IMG/VR virus record: IMGVR_UViG_3300021254_000021
Span: 160,001 to 224,000 of that record
Length of the DNA: 64,000 nt
From: a virus
Lineage: Duplodnaviria; Caudoviricetes
Strand: one strand, 5' to 3'
Part shown: positions 41,080-62,717 of the stretch, in pieces
How the letters are laid out: each line of letters starts with the position of its first letter
How positions within the stretch are numbered: the first letter of the stretch is position 1
Made by a program: the position numbers and the translations under genes
The notes under the pieces: generated by a model
The model's input: the letters and a program-made list of their open reading frames with translations, nothing else
What the model was told of the DNA's origin: nothing
Databases searched by the model: none

Positions 41080-41259
41080 ATGTCCCTTTTTAAAATTTAC
41101 CTCCTCTTAATTTAAAGACTTTCACAGTTACGGGCATAGTGGTTTAATCCTCTATGCCCTTTTTTATTCACCCAATCCTTCACACAGTCCATTAAGGGGA
41201 TAAGGAATTAAGTAAAATTCCCCTGATAGTAATTTTACAAAAATATTTAAGGAGACTGT

Positions 41260-44200
41260 GTGATGTCAGATTATTTAAAAGAGTGTGCGGACAAGGCGGT
41301 GATGGTATTCAAGGCAAACGGTATTAAATCAGAACATTACCCTTCTTTACTTGAATCCTTATTTAAGGATATGGAGCTTATTTATCATGGGATAAGTAAA
41401 GAGCAGGTAGATGAATTAAAGGGGTTTGGTTTTGACTTATATAAAATGAATATGGATGAGCGTAGAAGCATTCTTTTCCAGATGTCCCTTTGCAGGGTAC
41501 TTTGTCACCTGAATGAAAAGATAAAAGGTTAAAGTTTTGCTTAAATAAGGCTTACAGAGATTTGGGAATTATTCCTTTATCTCTTATTTAACAGACCAAC
41601 TTTAAAAAAGGAGAGAGCGATGAGTAAAACAAGACAGGCAGTAGTAATCCCCGTTTCATTAAAAGACAAACCTTATGTCACTACCATAAAGGATCATTAT
41701 ACAGCCTATTATCCGATTATTGGTTGTCGTTGTTTCGACATGGTAGAGTTGTGGGAGAAGGGTCATAAATCAGTGGATTGTTATGTGGATGATGAGGGTA
41801 TGATTAACGGTTCACCAGTCAATGAGTATTGGCTTAGGGCGTACCAATTGGGTATTGTAAACAATCCTTTGTTTGGTATCTGTGTCATTACCATGACGGA
41901 CACAAATACGGGAGATTCCACAGAGACGGATTTAAACCTTGTTAAAGAGGTGTTAAGAAGATACGGGTTTACCCGAGACGAACTTTCCTTTTAGAAGGAA
42001 TGTCACATTAAGTCCCAAAATGTCCACTCTGACAGAAAAGGGGATGAGGAAATTTTCCAAAGTCCCCTGAGAGCAACTTTACAAAAATATTTGGCCAATC
42101 TTTCTTTAAGGGAGACATATTATGGAAGGTATCACTGTTAATGGTAAAGAATACAGCTCTTATGAAGTGTCAACCATGTGGAAACTTACTCATTTAAGTG
42201 CGGAGCTTAGTGAGTTGGCGAAACATTCCAAGAATGAATCTGTTTTGAGACAGTGCGAAAAAGTACTTATGGAACTGAATCGTTTACACTTTTGTGACTT
42301 TGAAGAAGAATCAAAACCTGAGTATGAACCATTTAGAGCAGAATACCTTAAATGTTGTGAGGCAATAAATAGTTGGAAGTAGTAACCTTATTAGGGATAA
42401 GGAATAATTCCTTATCCCCCACACATCAATTTTACAAAAATATTTGACCAACTTTAAAGGAGACTGTGTTATGGCGAAAGACATCAATAATAAAGAAATC
42501 GTGTCTGGTTATGTTGTAGAGATTAAAGGTGCTTACAGCAAATTAGATAATGGTTTGTGGTATGTTGACCATTCTTCTGACAGAGGGGTCTGGTTACACA
42601 AGTTAAATAAGGATATGAGCAAGAGCAAAGGTAAAAATACCTGTACAGGTTGGCCCCTCCGTTCATACAGCAATAACCGTTACAAACGTTGTGAGATTAA
42701 CGAGTATAATGAGGCCAATGCCACAATAGAGATGCTTTGTCCTTATGTAGAACCTACTCCGAAACCAGTGAGCAATGAAATTAAGATTTTAAAGAAAGGG
42801 ATTCGGAAAGGTGATAAATACTATCCATGCTATTACTGGAAAAACAGTGATGGCACTGTGACTGTCTATGCAAAAGACTATGGCTATGACGGCCTTCCCA
42901 GTGGTTTGGGTAATGTCATCAATGAATCAAACGGACAAATCGACTACTTTGAGAAAAGCCACTGTTATTTAAAGGAAGGGGATAGATACTATAATGAAGT
43001 GATGGCTGTTGTTACCAAACACTCTTAAATAAGGCTAACATTAAATAAGGAACATTTTTTGTTCCTTATTTAATTCTTTCTTTTTCCTTTTATGTCCCTT
43101 ATTGACCGACTCTTAAATAAAGGAGACTGAATTATGTTGAGCAATCCCCATCAGGTAATGGAAAGACTGAATGCTTTAGCACCTAATATCGGCCTTAGTC
43201 ACTGTGACAAAAAGAGTATGATTGATCCAGAGCTGTTTATGATAGGAATGTTTGTTATAGACATAACAGCATTGGGTGAATGGATGGAAAAGAATTACCC
43301 CGAGTATCTGGAAAAATCATTGCACGATTTCCTTATGGATAAAGACCCAGATCATATAGAGGAATGGAAGGAGTTACTGGGTGTTATGTAACCAATAAGG
43401 GGATAGAAAAGTTAAGTTAAATCCCCACAGACCAACTTTATAAAAATCTTTAACCAATCTTTAAAGGAGAATGTTATGTCGTCATTTAATCGTACTTTAA
43501 TTATTGGCCGTGTAGACTGTAAACCCAAGTTAAAGAGAGATGGTAACATGGAGTATGCAGATTTTAACATCATAACCACTGTAACTTCAGGTGATAAAAC
43601 GGAAAGCATGGCACATCCAGTTCGTTGTTATAGCAGACAAGCTGTTTTGTGTAATGAGAATTTGGATAAAGGTGACTTATGCTGTGTTGAGGGTAGGCTG
43701 ACTGATGAAAACTATGAGGACAAACTAAAACAGGTTATTGCTGAGAAAGTTGTATTCATAAGGAAGAAATAGAGTCTTAAAGGGGATGGAGTTAATCACT
43801 TAAATCCCCTAACGCCAATTTTACAAAAATATCTAACCAATCTTTAAAGGAGACAGCTATGAACGACAGCTTTGGTAATGAAATTCAGGTGGGTATGGTT
43901 GTTGAGATTTCTGATTCCTGCATTAAGGGAGATAATGGTCTTTGGGTAGTTACCAGTGTGTACACCAGTGAGGCATACTGCCATAAACTGAATAAGGATA
44001 TGCGTAAAGCTAAAGACGGCCCTCACACCACCGTCAGTTGGCCTCTGCATACTTATCTCAATGACCCATACAAAAGACATGAGGCTAACCGTTATAATGA
44101 AGAACATGCACGTATCCGTGTCCTATGCCCTTATGTTGAGCCTGCACCGAAACCTGTAAGTAATGATATTAAGATTCAGAAAAGAGGGATTAAGAAAGGC

Positions 44201-46095
44201 AACTCTTTCTGCTCCTGTTATTACTGGAAAGGCCGTGACGGTAGCATTTACATTTCAGCAAAACACTATAACGAACATATCCCTAGAGAACTTGGCAATG
44301 TCAAAAATGATTCCGATGCCATGACCGATTACTTTGAGACGGACAGCTTAGTCCTTACCACGGAAAGTCCATACTATCAGGCGGCATTAAGATGCTGTAA
44401 ATGAACAAAATTAAATTAGTCACTTCCCCTAAGACTGAGGGAAATTTAATTCATTGATTGCCCTAAGATACTGATTAATTAACCAGTATCTTAGCTTTTC
44501 TTTGAATATTCCTTATTTACTGTCTTTTAAATAAGGACATAAAAGTTTAGTATTACTAAAACTGAATTAAATTTTTCTTGATCTTAGGGCAATATGTTAA
44601 TTTGGTTTGGTCTAATATAAGATTGTGCTTAATTAAAGTCATCTATTTTGTCTAAAGGCTGTATTTAATTTAACTCATCTGAGTGTGTTACCTAAATGAA
44701 AAGATAGGGATTTAGAATTGGGTTAAGTGTGAGATGTAAAGGGGATGGAGATGGTTGTTTAAGTCCCCTCGAACCAACTTTACAAAAATCTTTGACAATT
44801 TTATAGGAGACTGAATATGAGTAAAGCACAGGATAAGGCCAAATCGTTCATTAAGAAATATTGTCGTGTTTATGGCAATGGTGTTTCCTTTAACAAAGAG
44901 GATGGTTGTTTCTGTAGTTGGTTGGAGATAGAGTCGAAACAGGATAATTATTCCAAGTTAGACTGGTGGGAGAGAAATGAATCTTTCTCTATTCGTCTGC
45001 ATGTGCAAGATGCTATCTTAGTTGTGGATGGTAAGATTGAGAATACATTGAATGCTGACTCTTTAAAAGACCTCATTATAGATGGGATAAAAGAGATGCG
45101 TGATACATTCTCTTTTAAGTCTGAGTGCTTCGACACTATGCTTTCCCATATAGGTATAACAGAGAATGAATGCGTATCTGTTATGGCAGAGTTATTCTTG
45201 GATAAATGTGTATCTGTGATGAACAAATCTTTTCCTGTTACCCAGAGGGCTTATGACAGATGGGTTGAGAAGGGATGTAAGCAGGAAGCTAAAAAAGAGC
45301 GTATAGCGTCCGTCTTTGGTAAAGATTTCGAGGAAGCTCTTACGAACGGCATTGCCTCTTTCCATGATGCCTATATAGAGAGTAAAATAAAGATGCTCTT
45401 TGCATTCTTTAAACAGCAGTATGGTGGGTTTACCCGATACACAGATGATGAGTTAAAAGAGAAGGCCAGTAGAGAGGCCGAGGAAACATGGGGGTTTTGG
45501 TTAAAGTTTGAGGTGATTGGGATTACTGACATCCTCTTACGGTATGATGTTGGTAAATGCACCCACTACGATTTACAGTTCGATAATACCTGTATGAAGG
45601 TGGAAGGTGACATCTTTGGTGATACAGGAAAACGTCTTCATTTCCACACCATATTTGCGGGCGGCTATAACATTCAGTGCTTGCACACTAGAACGATAGC
45701 TCACGTGTTCTAATCCGTATATTCCCCTACTTATGGGGAATATATTTTGACCAGCTTTTACAAAAGGAGACTGAACAATGTTCTGTATGGAAAATGCGAC
45801 TGAAGCAGAGTGCCAAGAGTTTATTAACTGGGTAAAAGAGAATTATGCTACGGATGATCCTGAGAAAAAAGAGGCTGTGGAGATTCTTAGCAGATACTAT
45901 GTTACAAGAGCTTTACCCTTATGCGGGATGAAGTCATGGTTTAAGAGGGATTATGCTAGATTCTGTAACGGCGATAAGTATGCAGTAGAGAGGCACAAAC
46001 GAAAGGAGTATGTCCCTGTTTACCATGATTCTACGAATGGTAAAATCAACGATCCTTCTTGGAGAGGCCCAAACGGTAATTGGTCTTTAGACTAA
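41260..46095 (+). other. cassette-like small genes: 41260, 41620 (DUF3846-like), 42122, 42471, 43134, 43476, 43859, 44817, 45778
   Basis: each has a strong AGGAGA-type SD; most are preceded by the 49-bp element; 41620 has YVDDEG...PVN; 42471 and 43859 are paralogues. Confidence 0.7.
43476..43772 (+). CDS. bacterial-type SSB-like OB-fold protein lacking the acidic tail
   Basis: FNRTLIIGRV...LDKGDLCCVEGRL...VIAEKV. Confidence 0.75.
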   Translation: MSSFNRTLIIGRVDCKPKLKRDGNMEYADFNIITTVTSGDKTESMAHPVRCYSRQAVLCNENLDKGDLCCVEGRLTDENYEDKLKQVIAEKVVFIRKK

Positions 46096-46143
46096 CTTAA
46101 AACCTACTCTAAAGAGTGGGTTGTTTTATATAAGGGGAAAGCA

Positions 46144-46677
46144 ATGAGTAAAGACACAGAGATATTAGGGTTCTGCCCAGGCTTTTGTTTTGGTACAATC
46201 TTAATGCGTAGTTCCCATGAGGGATTCTATTATAATTCTATTAAAGAGATTCTTAAAAAAAGAAGGTTTTATCTGGTTACTGTGGGGGATGAGGAAGATG
46301 AGGAAACATTCTTTATTAAAGGCAGGGAGTTATTTACCCTTTACTTTGTACCTCAAGGCTATCAGATACTTAGAGGATCTGATTTGGAGCGAGAGATACA
46401 GGAACAGATGAGCGAGGAGGATTCATCCAATTTTCATCACGTGTTTGGCTGTTCCAACTTCTACAGCACACACTTTCGGGATTTAACTATTGGTGTGCCC
46501 TACAGGTATATCAACGAGATACCCAATACATTTACGTCTTTGCAGGAATGTGTGGAATCTATCAAACCCCTAGGAAAAGAGATAAGGATTTATTGTTTAC
46601 ATACATCCAATAAGCCTTATAGCCTAGAGGAGATAATCCATTATGGTCACACTGCGACGAATAACAGAGAAGAATGA
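46144..46677 (+). CDS. hypothetical protein; paralogue of 59415
   Basis: shared FGTILMR, GDEEDEETFFIKGREL, HTSNKPYSLEE. Confidence 0.75.
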   Translation: MSKDTEILGFCPGFCFGTILMRSSHEGFYYNSIKEILKKRRFYLVTVGDEEDEETFFIKGRELFTLYFVPQGYQILRGSDLEREIQEQMSEEDSSNFHHVFGCSNFYSTHFRDLTIGVPYRYINEIPNTFTSLQECVESIKPLGKEIRIYCLHTSNKPYSLEEIIHYGHTATNNREE

Positions 46678-47491
46678 TTCTTTACTGACAATGCAATCAG
46701 CCGATCCTTATACCTTATGGCAACAGTCAAAGAATAAATTATCCCAGACCAAACTTATTCCTCTATCCTCTTTAGGGTTAAGGGATGTCCGAGTAAGAGA
46801 TCCACATTCTTTAGACACTCTTTATATAAATGAAGGGGATGCTACTAAGATAAAAGATACCATAGAGGAAGTGAGAGAGAAGCAGAATGATGCTTTAACT
46901 TTATTAACCATAGCTAGGGAGATAGATCATTCCATTGAAGAACCGAGTGCATATAAGGTGGATGCTTCTGGTCTTTTTACTAAGTCTCAAAATGATCTTA
47001 TGATCTTTATCCCTAGCTATATTGCACAAGGTCTAAAAGATTTAAAGAAGCAATTACAAGATAAAGGAATAAGATTAAACATAAATATTGTTTCCCATAA
47101 CAATCAGTCTTTAAATAAGCTCTATCATATAGAGGCTTCGACAAAGGTTTCCATTCTTAAACTATCCCTTAAGTATAATAAAAAGAATTATACCAATAAG
47201 GATGTCACCTCAATCCAAGACCTAAAGACTTTCTTAATAGATGCTGTATCGAACAATCCCGAGGCTGTACAGATCATTAAGAACTTTGACTTCACCAAAC
47301 CTATGCCAAAAGCACAACAGGCCAGAACGGTGGATGGTATTCTTTATTATTCCTTAGCGCCTATGGCTAACAGGGCTCATAAGATAGGACAGTTAGATTT
47401 CTCTTACTCTAATGGGAAGGTGAATATTGTACCAACTGCAACCGTCCAATACAGATACAGATTTAATGATGGAGAGCTGATAGAAGGATAA
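46643..47491 (+). CDS. hypothetical protein with basic-Glu leader
   Basis: MVTLRRITEK; GAGGAG SD. Confidence 0.7.
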   Translation: MVTLRRITEKNDSLLTMQSADPYTLWQQSKNKLSQTKLIPLSSLGLRDVRVRDPHSLDTLYINEGDATKIKDTIEEVREKQNDALTLLTIAREIDHSIEEPSAYKVDASGLFTKSQNDLMIFIPSYIAQGLKDLKKQLQDKGIRLNINIVSHNNQSLNKLYHIEASTKVSILKLSLKYNKKNYTNKDVTSIQDLKTFLIDAVSNNPEAVQIIKNFDFTKPMPKAQQARTVDGILYYSLAPMANRAHKIGQLDFSYSNGKVNIVPTATVQYRYRFNDGELIEG

Positions 47492-47585
47492 GCTATTCCC
47501 TTTAAACGAGGAATATTTCGGATACATAGTATTATGGGGTATGCTTAGATTAAGCATACCCCATTTGTTTTTACTGGGATTTAAC

Positions 47586-47634
47586 AGAGGCGAACGGTAA
47601 ATCCCACGAGGCTTTAGCCTCGTGAATAGTTCAC
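47586..47634 (+). mobile_element. single-hairpin IS605-end miniature element
   Basis: CACGAGGCTTTAGCCTCGTG-AATAGTTCAC, directly before the ligase SD. Confidence 0.6.
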
Positions 47635-47649
47635 AAAGGAGAATGAATA

Positions 47650-50028
47650 ATGGCATTAGAGACACAGCGTACTTTACCACAACTGAAAGCTGAATGTTTG
47701 CAGAAGGGAATAAATGTTGTTATAGAAGGGAAAAAGGAACATAAAGAGGATTATGTAAAAGCTCTTAGAAATTACTGGTTAAACAAGTATTATGACTCAC
47801 CAGAGAATGCACCTTGGGCACTTAAATTTATGCTGAATGAAATAGATTGTCCTATGCTCTGTAAGAGGTTTAAACAGTGCAAACCAGAGGTGCAGAAAAG
47901 AATGTTTGAATCGGATGAGTATATAGCTGAGGAGAAAATAGATGGTTGTTTCTCTTATAATACAGGAGTTCTTCTATCTGATGGTACTACAAGATCTATA
48001 GGAGAGATTGTAGAAAAGCGTTTACCTGTAGAGGTAATGTCTTTTGATGAAATAACTGGTAAACTTGTTCCTAGACAAGTAGTTAATTGGTTTAATCATG
48101 GTCAAAAAAAAGTATCTCAATGGGTGAAAATGAGTAGTACTGGAGGTAATTCCGTCCCTTTAAGGAATTTATCTCAACAAGAAAATTTTATTACAAAAAA
48201 CCATATTATTTATTCCGATGGTGCTTGGAAAAGTGTAATAGAATCTGACCATATAACTAGAGTTTTGCCTTCAATGAATCTTACTCAATTACAAGTTATG
48301 TATGGTTCCGTTCTAGGTGATGGAACATGTGCATTTTCTACTGATAAAGATGTTAATGCTTATTATGAGTTTTGTAATTCAGAGAAGCAAAAAGATTACT
48401 TTGATAAAAAAGTACAACTTTTTATAAAAATGCCGAATAAATTACAGACAAGGGTGAGTGGTTATGGTTCAACTATGTATTCTTGTCGTTTAAATGCTTG
48501 TAAAGAAGCCACGGAGCTTCATCATTTAGGTTATGTTAATAAAACTAGGAGAGTTACTAAAGAATACCTAGATAGAATGGATCTTTTAGGTCTTACTATA
48601 TGGTATTTGGATGATGGCTCTCGAAATAAAAGTAGGGATGAGCATACTTGTAAAATAACAAATAAATACTCAAGAGTTACTTTTTCAGCATACCGATATA
48701 ATGAAGATGATGTGAAAATAATTGTTTCATGGTTGAATGCTAGAAATTATGGTGCTTCTTTCCACATGACTACTAGGAAAGGAAATAAATTAGGATATAT
48801 TATTAACTTATCTTCTATGGGTAGTCAGAAGTTTTTTAAAGATATAGCTCAGTATGTACCAGAATCAATGGCTTATAAGATTCCACCAGAGTTACAGAAA
48901 GAGTGTGGGAAAGTGGAATGGTGGAGAGATTCTAAATTAGAATATATTTATGATTCTGTTCCTGTAAAATGGAAAAGTCATAAATCAGAGAATAGAATAT
49001 GTTCCTCTACGAATGCTTATGATATTGAAGTGGATGGAAACCATAGTTATGTTGCTAATGGTATTATTGTTCATAATTCTCGTAGTTTGATTATTTGGGA
49101 TGCTTCAACACAATCCTTCGACTTCTATTCCCGTAACAACTCTGTCAAAGACTTTTTACCTCAGTCATATAAAGATACTGTTTTAGTAACTTCTAAAGGT
49201 TTTACTTATCCAGAGAACTTTGTATTAGACTGCGAGGTTATTTCTACTAATCCAAACATCTCTACTGTAATGGGGAAAAGAGGGGTCGTATGTGCAACAC
49301 AGCTTCAAGCAACCACAGCTTTATTAGCCCTTAATCCAGAGGACTCCAAAGCATTGCAAAGAAAAGATCCATTAAAGTTTATTATCTTTGACTGTCTTTA
49401 TGATGGAGAATCTTTAATTAATAAACCTTGGAAAGAAAGACATCCTCATGCAGAAAAGTTAGCCTCTTTGCTTAAACAGTCTGGATTTACCTGTGATATA
49501 AACCCAGTAGTAAGAGAGAATAAATTAGAGTTTTATTCCGACTTAATTGAACAAGGAAAAGAAGGTTGTGTGTTTAAAAGAATTGATGCACCTTATCATG
49601 GATGTACAAGCAGGACGGATGATCAGGTTAAGTTAAAAAGAACGGTGGCAGAAGGGCTGAATAAAGACTTGGATGCTTGGGTTACAGGTTTTATTCCTTC
49701 TACACAGGATAAAGGATGGTCTAATTATATTGGAGCTTTAGTCTTTTCCTGTAAGGTGCAGATGAAGGATGGGACAATAAAGGATCATGTTATTGGTGTT
49801 TGCTCTGGTATTCCTTTTGAGTTAAGAAAGGCAGCAACCATTTATATTGATGATAAGCCCAGTCTAAACCCCGACTTCTTAGGAAGGGTTGCAACATTAA
49901 GTGGACAGAATATCAGTGCAAGAAAACTAGCTTTGACTCATGCTGTAATACAGTGTTGGCGTCCAGATAAAGATCCAGATGGATGTGAGATTTTAACAGA
50001 AGAAGAATTATTATCGTTGGTATTTTAA
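47650..50028 (+). CDS. ATP-dependent DNA ligase with intein (about 415 aa after splicing)
   Basis: motif I EEKIDG|SR, VLDCEV, FIIFD, EGCVFK, VKLK, WRPDK. Confidence 0.9.
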   Translation: MALETQRTLPQLKAECLQKGINVVIEGKKEHKEDYVKALRNYWLNKYYDSPENAPWALKFMLNEIDCPMLCKRFKQCKPEVQKRMFESDEYIAEEKIDGCFSYNTGVLLSDGTTRSIGEIVEKRLPVEVMSFDEITGKLVPRQVVNWFNHGQKKVSQWVKMSSTGGNSVPLRNLSQQENFITKNHIIYSDGAWKSVIESDHITRVLPSMNLTQLQVMYGSVLGDGTCAFSTDKDVNAYYEFCNSEKQKDYFDKKVQLFIKMPNKLQTRVSGYGSTMYSCRLNACKEATELHHLGYVNKTRRVTKEYLDRMDLLGLTIWYLDDGSRNKSRDEHTCKITNKYSRVTFSAYRYNEDDVKIIVSWLNARNYGASFHMTTRKGNKLGYIINLSSMGSQKFFKDIAQYVPESMAYKIPPELQKECGKVEWWRDSKLEYIYDSVPVKWKSHKSENRICSSTNAYDIEVDGNHSYVANGIIVHNSRSLIIWDASTQSFDFYSRNNSVKDFLPQSYKDTVLVTSKGFTYPENFVLDCEVISTNPNISTVMGKRGVVCATQLQATTALLALNPEDSKALQRKDPLKFIIFDCLYDGESLINKPWKERHPHAEKLASLLKQSGFTCDINPVVRENKLEFYSDLIEQGKEGCVFKRIDAPYHGCTSRTDDQVKLKRTVAEGLNKDLDAWVTGFIPSTQDKGWSNYIGALVFSCKVQMKDGTIKDHVIGVCSGIPFELRKAATIYIDDKPSLNPDFLGRVATLSGQNISARKLALTHAVIQCWRPDKDPDGCEILTEEELLSLVF
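47947..49077 (+). mobile_element. intein (377 aa) with LAGLIDADG endonuclease in ligase motif I
   Basis: KIDG|CFSYNT...GSVLGDG...WYLDDGS...IIVHN|S. Confidence 0.9.
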
Positions 50029-50133
50029 CATGATATGAACTAAGAAAAAGCCCTCTATAAAAGAGGGCTTTTTCTTTTCCCAAATCCCCCTCAGATCAAC
50101 TTTACAAAAATCTTTTACCAAGGAGACTGTCTT

Positions 50134-52462: not shown

Positions 52463-52479
52463 CCAAAAGGAGAAAAGAA

Positions 52480-52986: not shown

Positions 52987-53112
52987 TTTAAAAACCACCT
53001 TAATTAAGGTGGTTTTTAGTGTACAATTCCTCTTGTTCTAAAGTATAATAAAGTTGTGGAATAATTTACGTATTCCATCATGTCCCAACTATGAAAAACT
53101 AAGGAGACTTTT

Positions 53113-53433: not shown

Positions 53434-53484
53434 ACTTATGGTGGGTATTCCCACCATTCTTAGCTAAACAAGGAAGGGAAGGTT

Positions 53485-54069
53485 ATGGCTACTGTACGAG
53501 TTAATTTAATGTCTCTGGATTATCCTGATGTTGCACAAAACAGTATTCTTGTTTTACAGTCTTTACGTGCGGCAGGGTATAAACTCATTATGCGTAATGT
53601 CTATTATAAGAATAAGGAAAGGGTAATAGACTATTTTGAGGATCGTAATTTAAAAATCTCTTTTATTCATGTGAGAAATCCAGAGATAGACATTGTTGCG
53701 GGCAGAGCAGTTATAAATGGAGATGTTATAAGAGGAGACAATAACTCGTTATGGGAGAGAATAGATCAGTATTGTTTGGAACACCATATTTATGAGCGTG
53801 AACAAACACCAGATGTCTTTATTCCCTCTTATAAGGAAGGATTCTTTGTTGTGACGGATTATGGATTAAGTACACAGGCCATAGATTCCAAACCCATCTC
53901 ATTGAAGGCGTGCCACACAAAAGGTGCAAAGATGTTTAAAGCCAACCCTTCTATCAATACGATTGATTTGGTTAATTCCACGACACTAGAAGTTGTGGAA
54001 CACTTTGACAAAAAGCAGAAATGCTTTGTAGCGGCTACGGAAAAAGTCTATTTTAGTATAATGGTATGA
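53485..54069 (+). CDS. hypothetical protein
   Basis: ORF with SD. Confidence 0.6.
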   Translation: MATVRVNLMSLDYPDVAQNSILVLQSLRAAGYKLIMRNVYYKNKERVIDYFEDRNLKISFIHVRNPEIDIVAGRAVINGDVIRGDNNSLWERIDQYCLEHHIYEREQTPDVFIPSYKEGFFVVTDYGLSTQAIDSKPISLKACHTKGAKMFKANPSINTIDLVNSTTLEVVEHFDKKQKCFVAATEKVYFSIMV

Positions 54070-54662
54070 CGAAAACTAAAGCTCTTTCCAAAGCCCCTTT
54101 TATGGGGCTTTTACTTTTTATTCTCATTCTTATTTTAACTCCATCCTTTGCTCATGCTCAAAGCTCTTTTTACACCTATATGGAACGATGTGAAGAATTA
54201 CGCCCAGAGATAGAGCAAATATTAAAAGAGGAGGGTTTACCCGACTACTTCTTTTATTTGGCACTGGCTGAATCGGGCTGTGACCCAAATAATAAATCTA
54301 ACAAGAATGCACTAGGTTTATTCCAACTTGTACCATACACATTTAAGGTTTACTCAAAAGGCGTTTGTACTTCTGACTCTTTTGAGGCGTGCCCAACATC
54401 CTCTGCATACGATCCTTTAATCTCTACAAGAGTTGCGGCCAAGTATCTTAAATCTCTGTATGATAGGTTTGACAAATCCTTAGACTGGACAGTTGCGGCC
54501 TTTAATGCGGGAGGTACTAACTTAATGAGAAAGACCTCATACTATAAAGGTATGGACATTAAGGTTGTTAAAAAGTATTTCCCACAGGCTTATGATTTAG
54601 TGATGAAGGTTCGCCGCTTTTCTGCTTTAGGAGAGGCATTAGAGGAAAAAGAAGAATCATAA
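54066..54662 (+). CDS. SLT-domain lytic transglycosylase with signal peptide (candidate endolysin)
   Basis: hydrophobic leader ending AHA-Q; LAES catalytic Glu; ALGLFQL; AAFNAG. Confidence 0.88.
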   Translation: MTKTKALSKAPFMGLLLFILILILTPSFAHAQSSFYTYMERCEELRPEIEQILKEEGLPDYFFYLALAESGCDPNNKSNKNALGLFQLVPYTFKVYSKGVCTSDSFEACPTSSAYDPLISTRVAAKYLKSLYDRFDKSLDWTVAAFNAGGTNLMRKTSYYKGMDIKVVKKYFPQAYDLVMKVRRFSALGEALEEKEES

Positions 54663-54790
54663 ATATTTTCCTTGCAATTCTATATCACTTGTGCGTATAT
54701 ATACATGTCTGCGGACAAAAAAGATTGGCCAATCTTTTTCTTTTACACTTAAACTTACACTTAAACTTAGACTTAGAAAGGAACTTAAAC

Positions 54791-55522
54791 ATGGACGAGA
54801 AAAACTCTTTAGCACCTGTATCTTCTACCTCATCTGCTGTTACCGTAGCGAGCCAAGCCACTTTTAGCTTGTCCTCTTTGAACTTAGCGGAAAATAACCC
54901 CTACATTATCGTTGCTAAGACAGGAACTACAGTAACACCCTACCCATTTGAAAGACTTAAGTTTGAACAGGGTAGGCAGTCAAGATTTGCTATTCTTACA
55001 TCTGAGGTTGTGATAGTGAAGCGGCATTATCACCCAGATTTAGGATATGTAATCTCTGATGGTGTGAATGATAAGTATTTCGATAAACCACCTTCGGTTT
55101 GTTATTTATACCCAGTCGTTCATTATACGGATTGTAGTGATAAGGGTAAACCTTTATCCGATGCAATTCAGGTAAAGATGCTTATTGCTAATAAAGAAAT
55201 GTACACGTCTATCTGTTCTGTGAATGACGTAAAAGGCGACATAACACAATTCGATTTTCTTGGTACACAACTCCCGGGTAATGATCGTTTCCCCAAAACC
55301 CAGTTAATTGAATGTGGTATGGCCTTATGGAGAAACAGTGATAAAGCGGCGGAATATATAGATTCCTATATGAAGCAGAATGGAGATCGTTTCCTAGCTT
55401 CTGTTGGTAAAACCTATCCTATTGAGAAACTGGAAGAACTGTTAGGTGGCGGAAGTGATCCTTCCTCATCTATAAAGGAAACAGTGGATCAGGATTTAGA
55501 GGATATATTCAAGCCCGTCTAA
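54791..55522 (+). CDS. putative phage-type ssDNA-binding protein
   Basis: size, aromatic-rich beta pattern, acidic tail DQDLEDIF, next to a resolvase; weak. Confidence 0.4.
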   Translation: MDEKNSLAPVSSTSSAVTVASQATFSLSSLNLAENNPYIIVAKTGTTVTPYPFERLKFEQGRQSRFAILTSEVVIVKRHYHPDLGYVISDGVNDKYFDKPPSVCYLYPVVHYTDCSDKGKPLSDAIQVKMLIANKEMYTSICSVNDVKGDITQFDFLGTQLPGNDRFPKTQLIECGMALWRNSDKAAEYIDSYMKQNGDRFLASVGKTYPIEKLEELLGGGSDPSSSIKETVDQDLEDIFKPV

Positions 55523-55583
55523 AATAATCAGTCTGCTCCGTATATAACCCCAATGAATCTAATTCATTGGGGTTTTCTTTTAT

Positions 55584-56129
55584 ATGGAGTTACGAATGAC
55601 TGAGTTAAGTAAAACAGTAGTAGGAATAGATCCTTCGTTTACTCGTACAGGAATAGCTATTTTAACTACTGATAAAAAGATTGTCTTTCATACGCTGTCA
55701 GAGCAAATAGGTAAAAAGGACTTTAGTCATACCTATAATTCTGCTTACTCTTTAGCCATCCAGTTAAGGGATTATTTAGAACCTTTTAAACCCTTTGATG
55801 TAGTGATGGAATATGCTCCACCTATATCGTCGATGTCACCTGCCTTGTATTGTTTAGACTCCCTATATCACTTTGTTCTACACCCATATATAGCACAGCT
55901 ATATCATCCGATGACATTGGCTACTATAATAGGAAAAGGGAAGGCGAGAACGAAAGCGGACTCTGTTTTGAAAGGGTTATCTATTATAAAGGAACTTCAA
56001 AAAGATGGTTGGGAAATGACCCAGAAAAGAAAACCCTGCCATGATTGTTTTGAAGCTCTTATATACGTAGATTACTTTATTCATAATGGAGTGAAGCCAT
56101 GTCAGAAGAAAAAAGTTGGGAACAAATAA
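55584..56129 (+). CDS. RuvC-like Holliday junction resolvase
   Basis: VGIDPSFTRTGIA, VVMEY, HDCFEA. Confidence 0.8.
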   Translation: MELRMTELSKTVVGIDPSFTRTGIAILTTDKKIVFHTLSEQIGKKDFSHTYNSAYSLAIQLRDYLEPFKPFDVVMEYAPPISSMSPALYCLDSLYHFVLHPYIAQLYHPMTLATIIGKGKARTKADSVLKGLSIIKELQKDGWEMTQKRKPCHDCFEALIYVDYFIHNGVKPCQKKKVGNK

Positions 56130-56428
56130 AGGAAGTTGTTAAAGACTGGAATGCGGATAAAAAAGAGGAAGTCTCTAAGGATGAGGAAGTAAAAGAGGAA
56201 GTAAAAGAGGAAGTAAAAGAGGAAGTTAAGGATGATGTAAGGAAAGATAAAGAAGAAGTAAAGAGTGAGGAGACAGAGGATAAAGAGAGTGATCCCATTA
56301 AAGATTTACTTTCTCTAAAGATTAAAGACCGCCCAATTCTCCATTGGATTCCAGTCTTTAATATGGTCTTACTCTTATTCATCATTCTTCTTTTACTTGT
56401 TATTTTAGGCTATCTACCCCGCATATAG
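56099..56428 (+). CDS. membrane protein with EEVK repeats and C-terminal TM helix (holin candidate)
   Basis: single C-terminal hydrophobic helix; directly upstream of spanins. Confidence 0.45.
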   Translation: MSEEKSWEQIKEVVKDWNADKKEEVSKDEEVKEEVKEEVKEEVKDDVRKDKEEVKSEETEDKESDPIKDLLSLKIKDRPILHWIPVFNMVLLLFIILLLLVILGYLPRI

Positions 56429-56438
56429 GAGGTAGAAC

Positions 56439-56834
56439 ATGACTGCAATACTTTCTAAGTTACTTTCCTCTAAAGCCCTTTCTATTACAGCTTTAATTCT
56501 TATTATTATCCTTCTTGTTACCATCGGTGTTATTCAAGTACAGAAAAAGGGATTGAACCAAAAAATAGATGATTTGAATAAAACTATTGACAATAAAGAG
56601 GAGACCATAATAGAATTGAATCAACAAATAAAGGTAAAGGATTTTGAAATCCAATATCTTCAAAAAGGTATAAGTATTGCCAATAGTTACGAGAAGGAAA
56701 AAGAAAAGGTTTTAGAGGATGAAACAACAACTAAGGTGCAAATACTTGAAAAAGTTATGTCCACAGAGGAAAACAAGGATTGGTGGAATACCCCTATACC
56801 TGCTGATATTCTTGACCTCATTACTTGCCGCTAG
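56439..56834 (+). CDS. i-spanin (Rz-like)
   Basis: N-terminal TM, coiled coil, C-terminal WWNTPIPADI. Confidence 0.75.
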   Translation: MTAILSKLLSSKALSITALILIIILLVTIGVIQVQKKGLNQKIDDLNKTIDNKEETIIELNQQIKVKDFEIQYLQKGISIANSYEKEKEKVLEDETTTKVQILEKVMSTEENKDWWNTPIPADILDLITCR

Positions 56835-57051
56835 TTGCTGTAAGCCAACTGTAAAAACCGTAACGGAATACAAAGTTATAAAACCACCTGAAACACTACT
56901 GGTACCATGTCCAGACGTGCCATTGGAAATGAAAACCAATGGCGACATGGTAATGGCATTGATTGAGCTGAACACCCAATACTTCTTATGTTCTATGAAG
57001 GTTCAGTCAATCATATTGTTTTACAGTGAACAGGATGTAACCACAGAATAA
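56719..57051 (+). CDS. o-spanin (Rz1-like lipoprotein) overlapping the i-spanin
   Basis: lipobox-like LLAASC; PPETLLVPCP; start uncertain. Confidence 0.75.
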   Translation: MKQQLRCKYLKKLCPQRKTRIGGIPLYLLIFLTSLLAASCCKPTVKTVTEYKVIKPPETLLVPCPDVPLEMKTNGDMVMALIELNTQYFLCSMKVQSIILFYSEQDVTTE

Positions 57052-57141
57052 ATAAAGGTGAGGTGGGATTAAGCTCCGATCTCACTTTCACTATTTATAT
57101 ATAACCAAGGTAGGGAGCAGTATTTTTGTAGGGGTAGAACA

Positions 57142-57750
57142 ATGTTAGACGTAATGCAGGAAGCAGACTTAATTCGTCGTGTTGCTAGAAAAGTATATTG
57201 GAACTCTAGGTATGCACGGTTGCGTACCCAGATTGATGAGGAAGATTTAATACAAATGGTTTTCCTCAAACTCTTACACCGTGACAATTATAAAAAGTAT
57301 TCAGACAAATATCCTAAAGTTGGTTTTATTTATCGTGTAGCAAACGGTTGTGCTATATCTTTTGCAAATAAATGTTCTAATATTCGTGAGTGGACTGTTT
57401 TGGATCAGCCTAGAGATAGTGATGATGATTCCAGAACAATCTTAGAGATATTATCCACAGAGACAGATGTACAACATCTCGACTTGGATATGCAGTATCG
57501 TATAAACAGGTTATCCGCGAGCATGGACCCCGAGGTTAATCAGCAGATTGTTATACGTCATAATGATGTAGACACTCCATTTTCCATAGAAGCTCTTTTC
57601 GATTTCTTTATTAAAACACACTATTCGAGAAAAGAGATTATGCCGTGTATAATAAACTTAAAGACGAATGCACCAGTTACACAATCCACCTTTGATAAGT
57701 GGTGGAAAATATTAGAGAATACAGCCAAGCAGGAATTAAGCAGAATGTAA
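57142..57750 (+). CDS. sigma-70/ECF-like factor (region 2 recognisable)
   Basis: LIRRVARK...DEEDLIQMVFLKL...GFIYRVAN. Confidence 0.65.
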   Translation: MLDVMQEADLIRRVARKVYWNSRYARLRTQIDEEDLIQMVFLKLLHRDNYKKYSDKYPKVGFIYRVANGCAISFANKCSNIREWTVLDQPRDSDDDSRTILEILSTETDVQHLDLDMQYRINRLSASMDPEVNQQIVIRHNDVDTPFSIEALFDFFIKTHYSRKEIMPCIINLKTNAPVTQSTFDKWWKILENTAKQELSRM

Positions 57751-57799
57751 ACAGACTAATCCCCTTATATTAGGGGATTACTTTTCTTAGGAGTATCTT

Positions 57800-58591
57800 A
57801 TGATTAAAGAATCTATTATCCTTCCTTCACAGGGTTATCCTTACAATGGGAGACTGAATGGGACATCGGTAACAGTCAGACCATTAACCACAAGAGTTTA
57901 CAAAGACTTCTTAGTTAATCCTAATGAGGAAGGTGTTATACATCTTGTAGATTCCTGTCTTGTGGATTGTCCTATATCAGCAGAGGAATTAGTCTATCAG
58001 GATGAACTAGCCGTGTACCTTAAAATAAGGTCTATCTCTATGGGTAGTATGCTTCCTATATTCTCTGTATGTCCTAAGTGTAAAGAAAAGAATACAGATG
58101 ATTGGGACATAATGAAACTGGAATGTTCCTACCTGTCTTTGGATGAATATCCTCTTACAGTAACTTTGCCTGATGCTAAGAAAAAGATTAGGCTGAGTAT
58201 GCCTACAAGTAAATCAGAAAAATTGGCTAAAGAGGAAGCACAAAAGCGAGCTACACGTTTTGAAAAGAAAGCGACTGAGTTTCTACCATCTTTTAAAATA
58301 GCTACCATTATGTCAGTAGATGGTATGAATGATTTAGTAGAGCGTGCAGAATGGTACAATTCTTTGTCATTAAAAGATGCCATCTATATTGACAAAGTAT
58401 TGGATGCTATGCAGGACTTTGGTATCCATACCGACCGACTTACTACCTGTTCCTCTTGTGGGCATGAATACTCTGTACCGCTTCAAATAAACTCCGACTT
58501 TTTTCGCCCAGATGTGGGGAATATCACAGGAATTAAAACAGCGAAGGGAACTTTGGAAGAAGGTCCTTCAGACACAACTGAGACTAAGTAA
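57800..58591 (+). CDS. T4 gp26-like baseplate hub/tail assembly chaperone
   Basis: LPSQGYPY, VRPLT, IRSISMG, CPKC, CSSC, DFF near the C-terminus. Confidence 0.7.
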   Translation: MIKESIILPSQGYPYNGRLNGTSVTVRPLTTRVYKDFLVNPNEEGVIHLVDSCLVDCPISAEELVYQDELAVYLKIRSISMGSMLPIFSVCPKCKEKNTDDWDIMKLECSYLSLDEYPLTVTLPDAKKKIRLSMPTSKSEKLAKEEAQKRATRFEKKATEFLPSFKIATIMSVDGMNDLVERAEWYNSLSLKDAIYIDKVLDAMQDFGIHTDRLTTCSSCGHEYSVPLQINSDFFRPDVGNITGIKTAKGTLEEGPSDTTETK

Positions 58592-58760
58592 AATAGCACA
58601 TATATCTATTACAGAGACAGATGCTATGGATTTATTAGAGGAACGTGAACTCGTTTTACTCTTAGTAAAAGACTTAAATAATGAAAATGATAATGTGAAT
58701 TTAGACACATTGGAGATGCAGGATGAACATAAAAAAGAAGATACAGGAGTTCATGGATAG
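58512..58760 (+). CDS. small overlapping partner (gp51-like/chaperone C-terminal part)
   Basis: HISITETDAMDLLEERELVLLL; overlaps in the +1 frame with no SD. Confidence 0.5.
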   Translation: MWGISQELKQRRELWKKVLQTQLRLSKIAHISITETDAMDLLEERELVLLLVKDLNNENDNVNLDTLEMQDEHKKEDTGVHG

Positions 58761-59358
58761 CACACAGCCTTTATCCCAGTTAGAGGAAATCATAAAGGCG
58801 GGTGATTTTCCTAAGATGAAGTTCTCTGATTTAGAGACATTCTGTAATACCCTTTTTTCTACGAACAAATACCAGTTATTGAAGTTACTAAACTCTTATT
58901 ATTCAAAACTGGTAGGTTCGACATCCATGCAGTTTTTTCATTTAAAGGTTCTTACTAATAACCCTTCTGGATCATGTCGAGACATGATCCAGAATTACAA
59001 GTGTATCTTTAGTTATAATAGGTATATTGATTGTTCTGGTTTATTGTCAGAATGGTCGCCAACAGAATCCTATTTTCCTCTATTGGTTTATATCCATCAG
59101 TCAAACCCAGATATACCAATAGATTACACTTACTGGCTAAAGAGGTTTTCTGAGTTACCTACAGCTTTAAAGTTCCTAAAGGATAATTCAATACCCATAG
59201 AGTTTACTGAGAAGGATGATTTAAAGGAGCTGTATAAAACAATTCCAGAGCAGTACATAAAAGACTTTTTAGACCTATTAGGTACAAAGTCATGGTACAT
59301 AGATGTAATTAAAGACACAGACCATTTCTTAGAAGAAATAGAGGAATGGGAAAGTTAG
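58723..59358 (+). CDS. hypothetical protein
   Basis: 211-aa ORF. Confidence 0.6.
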   Translation: MNIKKKIQEFMDSTQPLSQLEEIIKAGDFPKMKFSDLETFCNTLFSTNKYQLLKLLNSYYSKLVGSTSMQFFHLKVLTNNPSGSCRDMIQNYKCIFSYNRYIDCSGLLSEWSPTESYFPLLVYIHQSNPDIPIDYTYWLKRFSELPTALKFLKDNSIPIEFTEKDDLKELYKTIPEQYIKDFLDLLGTKSWYIDVIKDTDHFLEEIEEWES

Positions 59359-59414
59359 AGCCCCGCCCTATTGGGGCTTTTCTTTTATTTAGAATTAAGT
59401 CAAGGAGACTGATA

Positions 59415-59945
59415 ATGATTTGGAGAGAATCAGTACAGGTTGGTTTAGTGTTTGGTACATTGTTAATGCGGGCAAACAATGATAAGGTTTATCCTAAATC
59501 TATCTCAAACACCCTTTTAAAAAACCGTCTTTATTTACTTTCTATCGGGGATGAGGAAGATGAAGAAACGTTTTGGATTAAAGGTAGGGAATTGGCAACT
59601 CTGTATGCAGACCAAAAAGGTTTTAGAGTTTTGGCTGATTCACCTTTAGGTAGTTTAATCTCGAATGTGATTAAAGAGGAAGATGCAGAAGCGCTAAACA
59701 AATACAGCTCGGATCCTTATCGTAATGTGGATGATCTTTCCTTCCATCACCCTAAGATGTCAGACAGACTGTTTTTAAACACCTTAAAAGAAACGGTGTT
59801 TCCGACAATGGATGCATTATTTGATTTTGTTAAGCCTTTATGTAAAGCAATAACCATGTATCGTATTCACACTTCCCCGATCCCATACTACCTAGAGGAA
59901 GTAAAAAGTTATTGCACGTCTAGTACCAATAATGTATCGTTTTAG
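59415..59945 (+). CDS. hypothetical protein; paralogue of 46144
   Basis: ATG 59415 after AGGAG; shared GDEEDEETF block. Confidence 0.75.
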   Translation: MIWRESVQVGLVFGTLLMRANNDKVYPKSISNTLLKNRLYLLSIGDEEDEETFWIKGRELATLYADQKGFRVLADSPLGSLISNVIKEEDAEALNKYSSDPYRNVDDLSFHHPKMSDRLFLNTLKETVFPTMDALFDFVKPLCKAITMYRIHTSPIPYYLEEVKSYCTSSTNNVSF

Positions 59946-60023
59946 GGGATTGAATTAATCCTTCAATCCCCCTGAGATCAATTTTACAGAAATTTTTAAC
60001 CAACTTTTAAAAAGGAGTTGACC

Positions 60024-60848
60024 ATGTGCGGACTTACAGGAATCATTTTTGGTAAACATTCACGTTCATTTGATGACTATGAGGAATTGAAGGAAATCTT
60101 TACTTCAATGTTTATCCTCTCTGAGCAAAGAGGCCGTCATGCCTCTGGTTTGGCTACACTGGATACCACAGGTAAAACACACCTTTACAAACTTCCTGTC
60201 CCACCAACTAGAATGGTTAATTTAGCAGGGTTTAATAAAATCCTTAATACGGTAAACAATAAAACAACTCTCTTAATTGGCCATTCCAGATGGAAAACGG
60301 TTGGGTCTGAGTATAACAATAATAACAATCAGCCAATTATTTCTGGATCAATCTTGGGTACACACAATGGGACAATCTCTAATGCCACAGCTCTTTTTGC
60401 TCGTTATCAGCTAAAGAGATTGGCCGAGGTTGACTCCGAAGTTCTTTTCCGTATGGCAGATGCTTCTTTACAGGAAGGAACATTAAACACTGTGACCTAC
60501 AAGAATTACTTGGCAGAGTGTCAAGGTGATCTTTCATGTGTCTTTGCCTCTAAGGCAGACCCAAAGTGTGTGTACTTATTTAAAGGATCTAAACCACTAT
60601 TCCTCTATTACAATCCTCGTTTGCAGGTAATTATTTATTCATCTAATGATGCTTACATTGATGCTTCAATCGTGGATTCAGATGGTTGGTTTCCTTTAAA
60701 GATGCCCGAAAACAGAATGTATCAGACTTGCTTTGACGACTTTAAAAATGTTGTCTCTGACTCATTTACCTTTATGCGTAATCAGCCTATAAGCAATTAC
60801 GTCAAAAAGAAAAGTAAACCACAGCGTTCCCTCTTTGTTGAATATTAG
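60024..60848 (+). CDS. class II (Ntn) glutamine amidotransferase
   Basis: N-terminal MCGL, RGRHASG, GHSRWKT, NNQP, HNGTI, VDSE. Confidence 0.9.
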   Translation: MCGLTGIIFGKHSRSFDDYEELKEIFTSMFILSEQRGRHASGLATLDTTGKTHLYKLPVPPTRMVNLAGFNKILNTVNNKTTLLIGHSRWKTVGSEYNNNNNQPIISGSILGTHNGTISNATALFARYQLKRLAEVDSEVLFRMADASLQEGTLNTVTYKNYLAECQGDLSCVFASKADPKCVYLFKGSKPLFLYYNPRLQVIIYSSNDAYIDASIVDSDGWFPLKMPENRMYQTCFDDFKNVVSDSFTFMRNQPISNYVKKKSKPQRSLFVEY

Positions 60849-60917
60849 GGGATAGAGAATTTAACTTAATTCCCCTCGAACCAATTTTACAAAAATCTTT
60901 CACAAAAGGAGTTGAAG

Positions 60918-61499
60918 ATGAGGACATTAAACGTGTTTGTTTATGGTACATTGATGAGCGGTTTTAGAGCTAACTCTTTTATCCCAGAAGGATCAAAGAT
61001 GCTTAAAGGAAGGATAGCAGGTAATCTTTACCACTATGCGGCAGGATTCCCCATTGTTGAAATTCTTAAACATTCCCAGTCCGTCAGAGGCACACGAAAT
61101 TACTCACTTGACATTGATGTGCAGGACAGCTTAAATCGTAATGAACCTGAATGCTTGCCGTTTGATTTAAACTATGGCCGTGTGCATGGTGAACTTTATA
61201 TGATTCCTTGTGAAGATGAGGAAACAGTATTGGACACTTTAGATAGCTATGAGGGATTTACCCCAGAGTCCGACTATAATCTTTATAACCGTACTTTAGT
61301 CCCAGTAGAGACAGAGGAAGGAATTATTTGGGCTTGGATTTACAATATGGAAACAATCCCAAATGCCACCGTTCAAATTCTCTCTGGTAATTGGCGTGAC
61401 TGCTTCTACTCTAATCGTGGTGGTTTACGTCCAGAGGTAAACAGAGCTATCCAAAAGAAAACCTTGTTTACAGAGGATAGTGATGAATATGACTTTTAA
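60918..61499 (+). CDS. gamma-glutamylcyclotransferase (AIG2-like)
   Basis: VFVYGTLM, VHGELY, LDSYEG, LYNR, AWIY. Confidence 0.9.
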   Translation: MRTLNVFVYGTLMSGFRANSFIPEGSKMLKGRIAGNLYHYAAGFPIVEILKHSQSVRGTRNYSLDIDVQDSLNRNEPECLPFDLNYGRVHGELYMIPCEDEETVLDTLDSYEGFTPESDYNLYNRTLVPVETEEGIIWAWIYNMETIPNATVQILSGNWRDCFYSNRGGLRPEVNRAIQKKTLFTEDSDEYDF

Positions 61500-61653
61500 G
61501 TGTGTCACCTAAATGAAAAGATCAAAAAGTTAAATTAAGGTATAGAGGCTCTGCTAAGATTTAGCAGAGCCTCTTCTTTTAAGGGGATGAAAAAGTTAAA
61601 TTAAATCCCCTCGAACCAACTTTACAAAAATCTTTGACCAAAAGGAGTTAGCT

Positions 61654-62103: not shown

Positions 62104-62183
62104 CCCATTAAGGGGATGGGGAATTAAGTTAAATTCCCCTGACACTAAATTTACAAAAATCTTTGACCAAAAGGAGTTTAGTT

Positions 62184-62525
62184 ATGGCACAGTTCAAAAC
62201 ACAGGCTCAGTTAGTTTCTGCTCTCCGTGAACAGCTCTCCACCAATACTTCACAAGCTCTGAAAGCTCTGGTTTTCCTGTTTAATCGTCAAACAGAAGAT
62301 GAGAAATTACATGAGCATACCAAGTACTTTAACACTGTTGGCTTCAATCACAATGATGCCAAGCGGCTTACAGCAATGGCCAAACAGTATTTGGCCACGG
62401 GACATCTCACCTCTTATCAGATGGTTGTTTTAATGAGGCTCGTTCCTAAGTATGCCCGTCAACTTATCCTTCATTCCTTAGCCACAGGGAAAATCCGAAA
62501 GGAAAATGGGTATTATGTGTGGTAG
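62184..62525 (+). CDS. hypothetical protein
   Basis: preceded by 49-bp element and SD; RQTEDE...VGFN..DA. Confidence 0.7.
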   Translation: MAQFKTQAQLVSALREQLSTNTSQALKALVFLFNRQTEDEKLHEHTKYFNTVGFNHNDAKRLTAMAKQYLATGHLTSYQMVVLMRLVPKYARQLILHSLATGKIRKENGYYVW

Positions 62526-62717
62526 TTAGAGGGAAGGAAATTCCTTCCCTTTTCCCCTCACACCAAATTTACAAAAATTTCTCTTAAAAAGTTTCAACTT
62601 TTACCCTAGCGGTTATTCGTTGGGGTGATGGTTAAAGCCTTTTAAGGGGATAGAGTTAATTCCTTAAATCCCCTCGAACCAATTTTACAAAAATTTCTTT
62701 TCCAAAAGGAGATAGTT

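Follow-up and report, generated by a model that had tools for sequence, protein, structure and literature searches.

A rigidly spaced hairpin cassette ahead of non-structural genes in a ruminant-gut phage, and its likeness to the promoter stem-loops of T4-type phages

A phage genome fragment of 64,000 nucleotides (the window, bases 160001-224000 of the 252,372-bp virus record IMGVR_UViG_3300021254_000021) contains a 49-bp element that recurs between the stop codon of one gene and the start of the next. It consists of the arm GGGGAT, 16 variable bases (N16), a TCCCC box, and a near-invariant tract, and the question it raises is what reads such a cassette, and whether it is read in DNA, in RNA, or in recombination. 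Window positions below are counted within that stretch and genome positions along the whole record. We give somewhat better than an even chance to a composite similar to the promoter early stem-loops (PeSLs) of T4-type phages, namely, an insulating hairpin combined with a non-sigma70, factor-dependent early or middle promoter in the right half. What we infer in this reading is that the element promotes transcription, where the transcripts start, what reads it, and that the hairpin acts as an attenuator.

A search of the window with the 49-bp pattern (both strands, up to 3 mismatches) returned 13 matches, all on the + strand, compared with 0.00 expected from 100 shuffles. A fourteenth copy (50063-50111) has a decayed left arm (GAGGGC) and an intact right half, and the 14 gap-free copies described in an initial annotation of this DNA are thus borne out. 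These copies and the genes that they head are as follows:

41196-41244 (+), copy 1, 0 mismatches and >25 bits by weight matrix; heads an 89-aa open reading frame (ORF; 41263-41532).
42040-42088 (+), copy 2; heads an 86-aa ORF.
42393-42441 (+), copy 3; heads a 185-aa ORF.
43399-43447 (+), copy 4; heads the SSB gene (43476-43772).
43782-43830 (+), copy 5; heads a 181-aa ORF.
44741-44789 (+), copy 6; heads a 298-aa ORF.
50048-50111 (+), copy 7, with its core at 50085-50111; heads a 165-aa ORF.
51626-51674 (+), copy 8; heads an ADP-ribosylglycohydrolase gene (51695-52462).
59945-59993 (+), copy 9, with the core variant TTTACAGAAAT, overlapping the upstream stop; heads a GATase gene.
60848-60896 (+), copy 10, overlapping the upstream stop; heads the gene of a GGACT-family protein.
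61583-61631 (+), copy 11; heads a 149-aa ORF.
62112-62160 (+), copy 12; heads a 113-aa ORF.
62530-62578 (+), copy 13, the upstream member of a tandem pair, with its hairpin wholly to the left of the TCCCC box.
62646-62694 (+), copy 14, the second of the tandem pair; heads an amidoligase gene (62718 onward).

A weight matrix built from the right half of the element and run over both strands of the whole 252-kb genome, with a cut-off of 25 bits, found 29 copies, all on the + strand and all intergenic, while nothing on either strand scored between 10 and 25 bits. Ten copies lie upstream and five downstream of the window's set, so that the element is not confined to 41-63 kb of the window, as had first been thought; over the whole genome, copies are grouped at 112-115 kb, 143 kb, and 201-237 kb and stand singly at 12, 128, and 158 kb. 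All 29 align over 56 columns with zero gaps. The earlier statement that no copy contains an indel is correct for these 29, unlike three decayed or diverged relatives, which do contain indels:

2326-2394 (+), diverged relative, a 9-bp hairpin of other sequence followed by TGTAACCAACTTTAAGAAAT, a Shine-Dalgarno (SD) sequence, and ATG.
41533-41619 (+), decayed copy, ACAGACCAACTTTAAAAAAGGAG, ahead of a DUF3846 gene.
45714-45777 (+), decayed copy, a short hairpin, a T-run, and the leader TTTTGACCAGCTTTTACAAAAGGAG; heads a 105-aa gene (45778-46095) that varies among strains.

The consensus is ttaa-GGGGAT-N16(..ct.AA)-wTCCCC-tsAsAcCAAy-TTTACAAAAAT-nT, followed in about half of the copies by tTTgACCAAcTTTaAAGGAGAc, which reaches the ATG. 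Within its 50 to 80 bases, the cassette holds a GGGG...CCCC hairpin, a 28-base near-invariant box, a leader, and a ribosome site. Both arms are rich in information, which is near-continuous from TCCCC to AAAAATnT (~28 bp); the arms (GGGGAT and AAWTCCCC) and the 21 bases that follow are almost invariant. The variable core noted earlier does diverge to nearly the random level, with 9.8 mean pairwise differences over its 16 positions versus 11.1 for random sequence, but it is not random, since 14 pairs of copies have four differences or fewer where 0.14 would be expected. Because these subfamilies persist, some of them in pairs more than 100 kb apart, the copies are homologous by descent, their arms and core being kept by selection or gene conversion. 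The right half is under strong sequence constraint, considering that information is near-continuous there while N16 has drifted to near randomness. Two A's ahead of wTCCCC are conserved without a pairing partner, and therefore the right box (AAWTCCCC) is read as sequence. The proximity of the copies to the upstream stop was confirmed for 17 of 29, which start between -2 and +10 nt from it (those at 59945 and 60848 overlap it), and the SD and ATG follow 12-43 nt past the core in the 26 cases called. The tandem copies before the amidoligase gene (62530 and 62646) are also real. No ORF is present in the 67 nt between them (62579-62645), which end in a TAA that directly abuts GGGGAT, and this gap may be what is left of a cassette gene that was deleted.

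The genes directly behind elements encode SSB, the ADP-ribosylglycohydrolase, the GATase, the GGACT-family protein, the amidoligase, a Cas8e fusion, and a DnaJ-domain protein, and the remainder include many small ORFs without a family match. Pfam confirmed the five families that had been named from the sequence (SSB, ADP_ribosyl_GH, GATase_6/7, GGACT, and Amidoligase_2). The element-headed genes are non-structural. A second motif, TATCTA(A/T), is found at a median of ~50 nt ahead of ~40 other genes, including those for the portal, tail sheath, and tape measure. It has no conserved -35 partner and is often located inside the loop of a terminator hairpin (examples at genome positions 27991, 60621, 71995, 151610, 180654, and 243938), an arrangement that would be a second design in which terminator and promoter are combined. 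On the gene map, the element and TATCTA complement each other for the most part; TATCTA looks like a late class (-10-only, similar to T4 late promoters) and the element like a non-late class.

We infer promoter activity of the right half from terminator adjacency, which is the strongest discriminator computed. Canonical intrinsic terminators stand 0-35 nt ahead of the left arm, or replace it, in six copies (four strong and two weaker; genome anchors 11939, 143923, 201229, 210096, 221616, and 236546). Those in the window are as follows:

41132-41168 (+), approximate; intrinsic terminator with an 8-bp GC-rich stem and a T6 run, ~30 nt before copy 1.
Copy 7 (+), where a canonical intrinsic terminator, by its 3' arm and T-run, takes the place of the left arm.
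From 61544 (+), strong intrinsic terminator with a 12-bp stem and a T-run; copy 11 begins 3 nt after it.

Only the element remains between such a terminator and the SD; therefore, the downstream gene needs a promoter there, unless the terminators leak heavily.

This promoter would not be of the host housekeeping type. Sigma70-type sites are not enriched in the element region (42 found versus 41.7 expected), and only five intergenic sites of at least 10/12 exist in the 252 kb. Canonical TTGACT-17-TATAAT promoters were found only on mobile-type genes, the two best sites sharing TTGACTTTCAT (window 25773-26241 and genome 63349-65273) and preceding an IS200-type Y1 transposase and a 615-aa treble-clef/restriction-endonuclease-like mobile-type ORF. 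Canonical promoters are thus known in this system, and the phage's own genes make no use of them. TTTACA was rejected as a -35 box, being only 23-46 nt from the ATG, with a -10 box 17 nt further on overlapping the SD or coding sequence. A Bacteroidota-type TTTG/TAnnTTTG promoter was likewise rejected; it fits with one mismatch, in only half of the copies, and the phage uses strong SDs. The proposal of an expression signal at gene starts outside sigma70 thus held. A phage RNA polymerase of family PF00562 had no match in the genome, with positive controls in 14/14, although a very divergent enzyme is still possible; the search for a T7-type polymerase (PF00940) was also without a match, but its controls were silent too, making it uninformative. 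With no phage RNA polymerase detected, the host polymerase would have to be redirected.

We propose that the cassette, which fills the interval between a stop codon and the following ATG, has two functional parts. The left G4AT...ATC4 hairpin would form in read-through RNA and attenuate or insulate upstream transcription, a role that a true intrinsic terminator would take over in some copies. The right part (AAWTCCCC, 10 bases, TTTACAAAAATnT) would be the promoter for the downstream gene. The host housekeeping sigma alone would be unable to read it, and a phage-supplied factor would be required, either a phage sigma or an activator at the TCCCC box, which stands at ~-30 relative to a -10-like element (AAAAAT/TACAAA). 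Transcription would start just past the invariant block, at element positions ~52-56. The leader of the transcripts (ACCAACUUUA...) would be poor in G and unstructured, and their ribosome site (AAGGAG) would be strong. A non-structural (early or middle) class would be defined by the 29 cassettes, and TATCTA would serve the structural genes. When AAAAAT is taken as the -10 box, AAWTCC(CC) falls at -35 to -28 with a 17-bp spacer, TCCCC is centered near -30, the place of the Mot box in T4, and a start near position 55 retains the SD in 27 of the 29 copies.

The hairpin zone folds better than shuffled sequences (mean z -2.9, mean -11 kcal/mol), with negative values in 27 of the 29 copies. In 8 of 29, the N16 interior pairs far beyond its own shuffles (z below -2) and extends the stem; in the copy at 42393, the hairpin is displaced by 2 nt, is paired along all of its 11 bp, and reaches -16.1 kcal/mol (z -6.0). 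The 43 nt located 3' of this zone are essentially unstructured (mean -2.4 kcal/mol). The canonical left arm is lost and the right box kept at genome anchors 143179, 143923, 158531, and 210096, while the hairpin is shifted at 222563, and each time another hairpin is found just upstream, twice as a full intrinsic terminator. We conclude that the hairpin and the sequence-specific right half are selected separately. The description of N16 as mostly unable to pair holds in part only, given those eight interiors, and the argument that an unpairable core means a protein-read DNA site is weak, given that copies without the left arm acquired other hairpins. Strand asymmetry of hairpin stability, tried as a test of RNA versus DNA, was uninformative (14 versus 15 copies).

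Several observations weigh against the promoter composite. Covariation of the stem in a fixed register is non-significant (76.2% paired versus 73.6% in shuffles, 25/500) because the arms hardly vary. The hairpin lacks a U-tract, being followed by TSASACCAA with a T-run that begins 10 nt later, and therefore is no intrinsic terminator alone. Intrinsic terminators do leak, and their adjacency is only suggestive of a promoter. No canonical -35/-10 arrangement can be placed, with no hexamer pair of at least 9/12 at any element. If transcription starts after AAAAAT, the start falls inside or past the SD in two copies (genome anchors 230524 and 143923), and the copy at 59945 has a G at the key -11 position of this best -10 candidate. 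MotA (PF09158) and AsiA (PF09010) had no match in the genome at E <= 1, and sequence searches found no sigma region-4 homologue. Finally, ACCAAYTTTA recurs beside the SD, both in the long-form copies and in genes that lack the element, which hints that the core may be a transcribed leader and not a promoter.

Some of these points are shared with an intercistronic module acting at the RNA level, a reading that we find unlikely although substantial enough to be weighed. The hairpin and the invariant, single-stranded UUUACAAAAAU tract would be part of a polycistronic mRNA and would be read by an RNA-binding protein or an endonuclease, cleavage leaving an upstream mRNA with a protective 3' hairpin and a downstream mRNA with an unstructured, translation-enhancing leader. 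It is consistent with this that the hairpin directly abuts stop codons, that the downstream leader seems selected to be unstructured, that ACCAAYUUUA is immediately ahead of the SD where it recurs, that no recognizable -35/-10 can be placed, and that the genes run almost entirely in one direction (293 of 313 crude ORFs on the + strand), making long transcripts possible. The UUUACAAAAAU tract presumably fits the RNase E RN|WUU rule, and we take the leader to resemble the A/U-rich epsilon-type enhancer of the T7 gene 10 leader, a likeness that we count for this module. However, six copies are located right behind canonical terminators, which would starve the module of substrate, 28 consecutive near-invariant bases far exceed the need of known RNase E or S1-type sites, and the region would be left without any promoter. 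Nor does the element belong to an Rfam family; Rfam 15 gave no match to the elements at E <= 1, only sub-threshold leader-peptide matches on the terminator at ~50000. A trans-acting ribozyme or antisense RNA was rejected, since whole-genome Rfam scans found no ribozyme, in the element region or elsewhere, and no complement of the core, as a candidate trans-RNA, occurs within 3 mismatches.

The composite of hairpin and promoter has its nearest counterparts in T4-type phages. PeSLs are found in RB49/phi1, T4/PST, and KVP40/nt-1 and have measured promoter and terminator activity (PMC2839356; PMC4122927). The resemblance proposed in the initial annotation is real, since PeSLs too are repeated intergenic cassettes that fill the space between one gene's stop and the next gene's ATG and have their SD at the 3' end (PMC2839356, PMC4122927). 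They share a stem-loop on GGGG...CCCC (here, GGGGAT/ATCCCC arms), a dense tandem use ahead of small accessory ORFs and some auxiliary genes that is rare in structural modules, and a conservation across ~50-80 bp, enough for homologous recombination; moreover, the major capsid protein of the phage studied here is of the T4 gp23 type. In contrast, PeSL promoters are near-consensus sigma70 (-35, N17, -10), and the element has no such pair. In PeSLs the stem can occupy five different positions, in contrast to the fixed spacing here, and PeSL-bounded indels and mini-circles were shown experimentally, whereas exchange is here a hint from sequence. The element has every architectural feature of a PeSL but the defining sigma70-type promoter; the novelty lies in the non-canonical promoter part, the kind of cassette being already known.

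In its logic, the element is closest to the middle-promoter variant, the promoter middle stem-loop (PmSL), with a new box and no MotA/AsiA. The T4 middle promoter has a Mot box ~12 bp upstream of a -10-like box, which nt-1 combines with a stem-loop in its PmSLs (PMC4122927). The likeness consists of a box other than -35 near -30 to a -10-like element, ahead of non-structural genes. However, the box is TCCCC here instead of TGCTT, no MotA/AsiA homologue was found, and the -10 assignment of the element is uncertain.

Searches for the element elsewhere were negative. The exact 26-base pattern had no match in IMG/VR, a looser 16-base core gave only single unrelated chance matches there and no multi-copy element, and the 26-base pattern (19 specified bases) gave 5 chance singletons and no multi-copy element in the GTDB representative genomes. 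Neither IMG/VR nor the GTDB representatives contained related loci when searched through the GATase, Cas8e, the capsid, and a 22-sequence sigma alignment, save one capsid match at 26% identity. A metagenome scan with the ADP-ribosylglycohydrolase returned 31 loci of unrelated context (GC 35-53%, most >44%), without the element. If the right half is a promoter, this ruminant-gut lineage would run its non-structural program, including its own CRISPR-Cas genes, on a class that is neither sigma70 nor T4 middle nor T4 late, by an undescribed way of redirecting host RNA polymerase, and the PeSL principle of regulatory cassettes doubling as recombination linkers would extend beyond host-type promoters. 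The 29 near-identical sites are a high-information target for finding the reader and allow the annotation of temporal classes in a phage without a cultured host; more than a modest practical value would require a demonstrated transcription start or binding protein.

The initial annotation proposed a sigma-like protein as the reader:

57142-57750 (+), ORF 57142, 202 aa, sigma-like; candidate reader of the element.

Its match to Sigma70_r2 (E 1.2e-3) is below the cut-off, and the Pfam region-4 families gave no match. We found 30 homologues (43-76% identity) in gut metagenomes, some on long contigs of 226 kb (72% identity), 72 kb (55%), and 61 kb (64%), and 0 in cultured phages. In an AlphaFold model from this family (mean predicted local distance difference test score 77.6), the N-terminal 80 residues align to extracytoplasmic function (ECF) sigma region 2 (Z 6-7.2) and to that of T4 gp55 (Z 5.7), and the C-terminal part (residues 104-202) aligns to region 4 domains, which bind the -35 box (Z 5.1-5.7), all at Z-scores <8, a range flagged as possibly generic. 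Its language-model (Atlas) neighbors are viral sigma or ECF-like factors, some with C-terminal helix-turn-helix domains. The modeled fold suggests that ORF 57142 is a sigma of probably two domains, as would be fitting for a bipartite promoter like the element. The proposal is thus upheld as to the region-2 fold and the region-4-like C-terminal domain and less so as to location, since the gene has late-type neighbors, with the spanin genes on one side and a T4_baseplate-family gene on the other, and follows a TATCTA site. It is the only sigma-like gene available for the late class and could equally read the -10-only motif TATCTA. That it is the reader of the element we consider rather unlikely, though far from negligible.

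If ORF 57142 does read the element, the arms themselves might be the promoter boxes, GGGGAT as -35 and (A/T)TCCCC as -10 with N16 as the spacer. The start would then lie at about position 34-36 (near CCAA), CCAAYUUUACAAAAAU would be a shared 5' leader, and the palindrome would be incidental. We think this improbable. An exact 16-bp spacing with free sequence does resemble a sigma spacer, the left box varies more than the right, as is usual for -35 boxes, the SD would be kept in all 29 copies, and the recurrence of the core motif as a leader beside SDs would be accounted for; the predicted fold and Atlas neighbors of ORF 57142 also favor it. However, a perfect 6-nt inverted repeat between -35 and -10 would be a coincidence, 8 of 29 interiors extend the pairing, copies without GGGGAT have substitute hairpins, and a C-rich -10 would be hard to melt. 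The low Z-scores, the lack of a Pfam region-4 match, and the position of the gene among spanin and baseplate genes, which suits a late sigma, count against it as well. The middle promoters of the Bacillus phage SPO1 are read by a phage sigma, gp28, a small two-domain protein that redirects the host polymerase to these bipartite promoters with their unusual -35 and -10 boxes. A small two-domain phage sigma would be present here too, and the closest cultured capsid relatives infect Firmicutes, but ORF 57142 has no sequence similarity to any cultured-phage protein.

The arms also resemble the type I-E CRISPR repeat of this phage (GTAATTCCCCC-ATAT-AGGGGGATGTTCC), which has AATTCCCC in common with the right box and GGGGGATG in common with the left arm. 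Upstream of cas8e, the degenerate terminal repeat of the array is the GGGGAT left arm of the cas8e copy (genome ~230464-230540), and two copies have solo CRISPR-repeat-like hairpins between the core and the SD (genome 113774-113797 and 225799-225822), ahead of two non-homologous small genes. These hairpins could be sites of Cas6e cleavage within mRNA leaders. The likeness between repeat and arms may be compositional; stems with G-runs and C-runs are typical of RB49 PeSLs (PMC2839356). A bolder reading, to which we give slim chances, is that the element is the bipartite promoter of a phage ECF-like sigma (ORF 57142), with its arms functionally tied to the CRISPR repeats and Cas6e/Cascade feeding the 29-gene regulon. 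If true, this would be a T4-capsid jumbo phage with an SPO1-style sigma cascade.

The suggestion that the element also serves as a cassette-exchange site found little in its favor. Logan contigs of four independent runs, from strains ~97% identical, were compared over window 41000-60999, and these 20 kb are collinear save three differences; no listed indel is bounded by two full elements. The first difference is an intein-free ligase allele, all four strains skipping 1162 nt (~30 nt instead), the second is a 63-nt replacement, and the third is the 105-aa gene (45778-46095), absent from two of the four strains, with both junctions in degenerate copies of the element leader module and a 3-nt microhomology (GAC). 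This last indel and the N16 subfamilies are compatible with PeSL-like shuffling, as a hint. The contigs break exactly at elements, where element-to-element joints with short sides (22-54 nt) occur. A loose contig end at 43805 matches the copy at genome anchor 236546, and the other loose ends at elements probably match other copies too. Because of the short sides and of the loose end that matches another copy, the joints were rejected as recombinants and considered repeat artefacts.

The same data bear on an integron attC-like recombination site whose main role would be cassette capture and excision, which we regard as very improbable. In its favor, each small gene has a single element whose arms form an inverted repeat, N16 subfamilies are common to copies >100 kb apart, and the one strain-variable gene is flanked by degenerate leader modules. 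However, no tyrosine recombinase was found in the genome (PF00589 gave no match, with controls in 14/14), the elements are 5' of genes and include the ribosome-binding site, whereas attC sites are 3' of genes, the four strains are collinear over 20 kb, and the indel junction shows just the 3-nt microhomology.

In the same region, the ATP-dependent DNA ligase gene (window 47650-50028) has an intein (~47936-49099) with a LAGLIDADG endonuclease. A K/E-rich repeat region (window 56183-56230) is hypervariable among strains, with a 24-nt indel, many loose contig ends, and inflated depth.

The nearest cultured relatives of the phage by capsid are large Firmicutes myophages (~30% identity); the cultured-phage collection contained no DNA match to the phage and no match to the sigma-like protein. 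No RNA run was among the sequencing runs listed as containing the phage, and its words were next to absent from two metatranscriptomes of the probable source sample. Sequencing runs of the bovine and goat gut, belonging to 12 studies, contain strains ~97% identical. A diderm host is indicated by the spanin genes (Rz- and Rz1-like), which overlap each other (window 56439-57051), though the nearest capsid relatives infect Firmicutes; a host among the Negativicutes would be compatible with both observations. An Rfam match to the int-alpA small RNA was found at L013:13878-13942 (-), with 40.6 bits, above the gathering score of 35.8.

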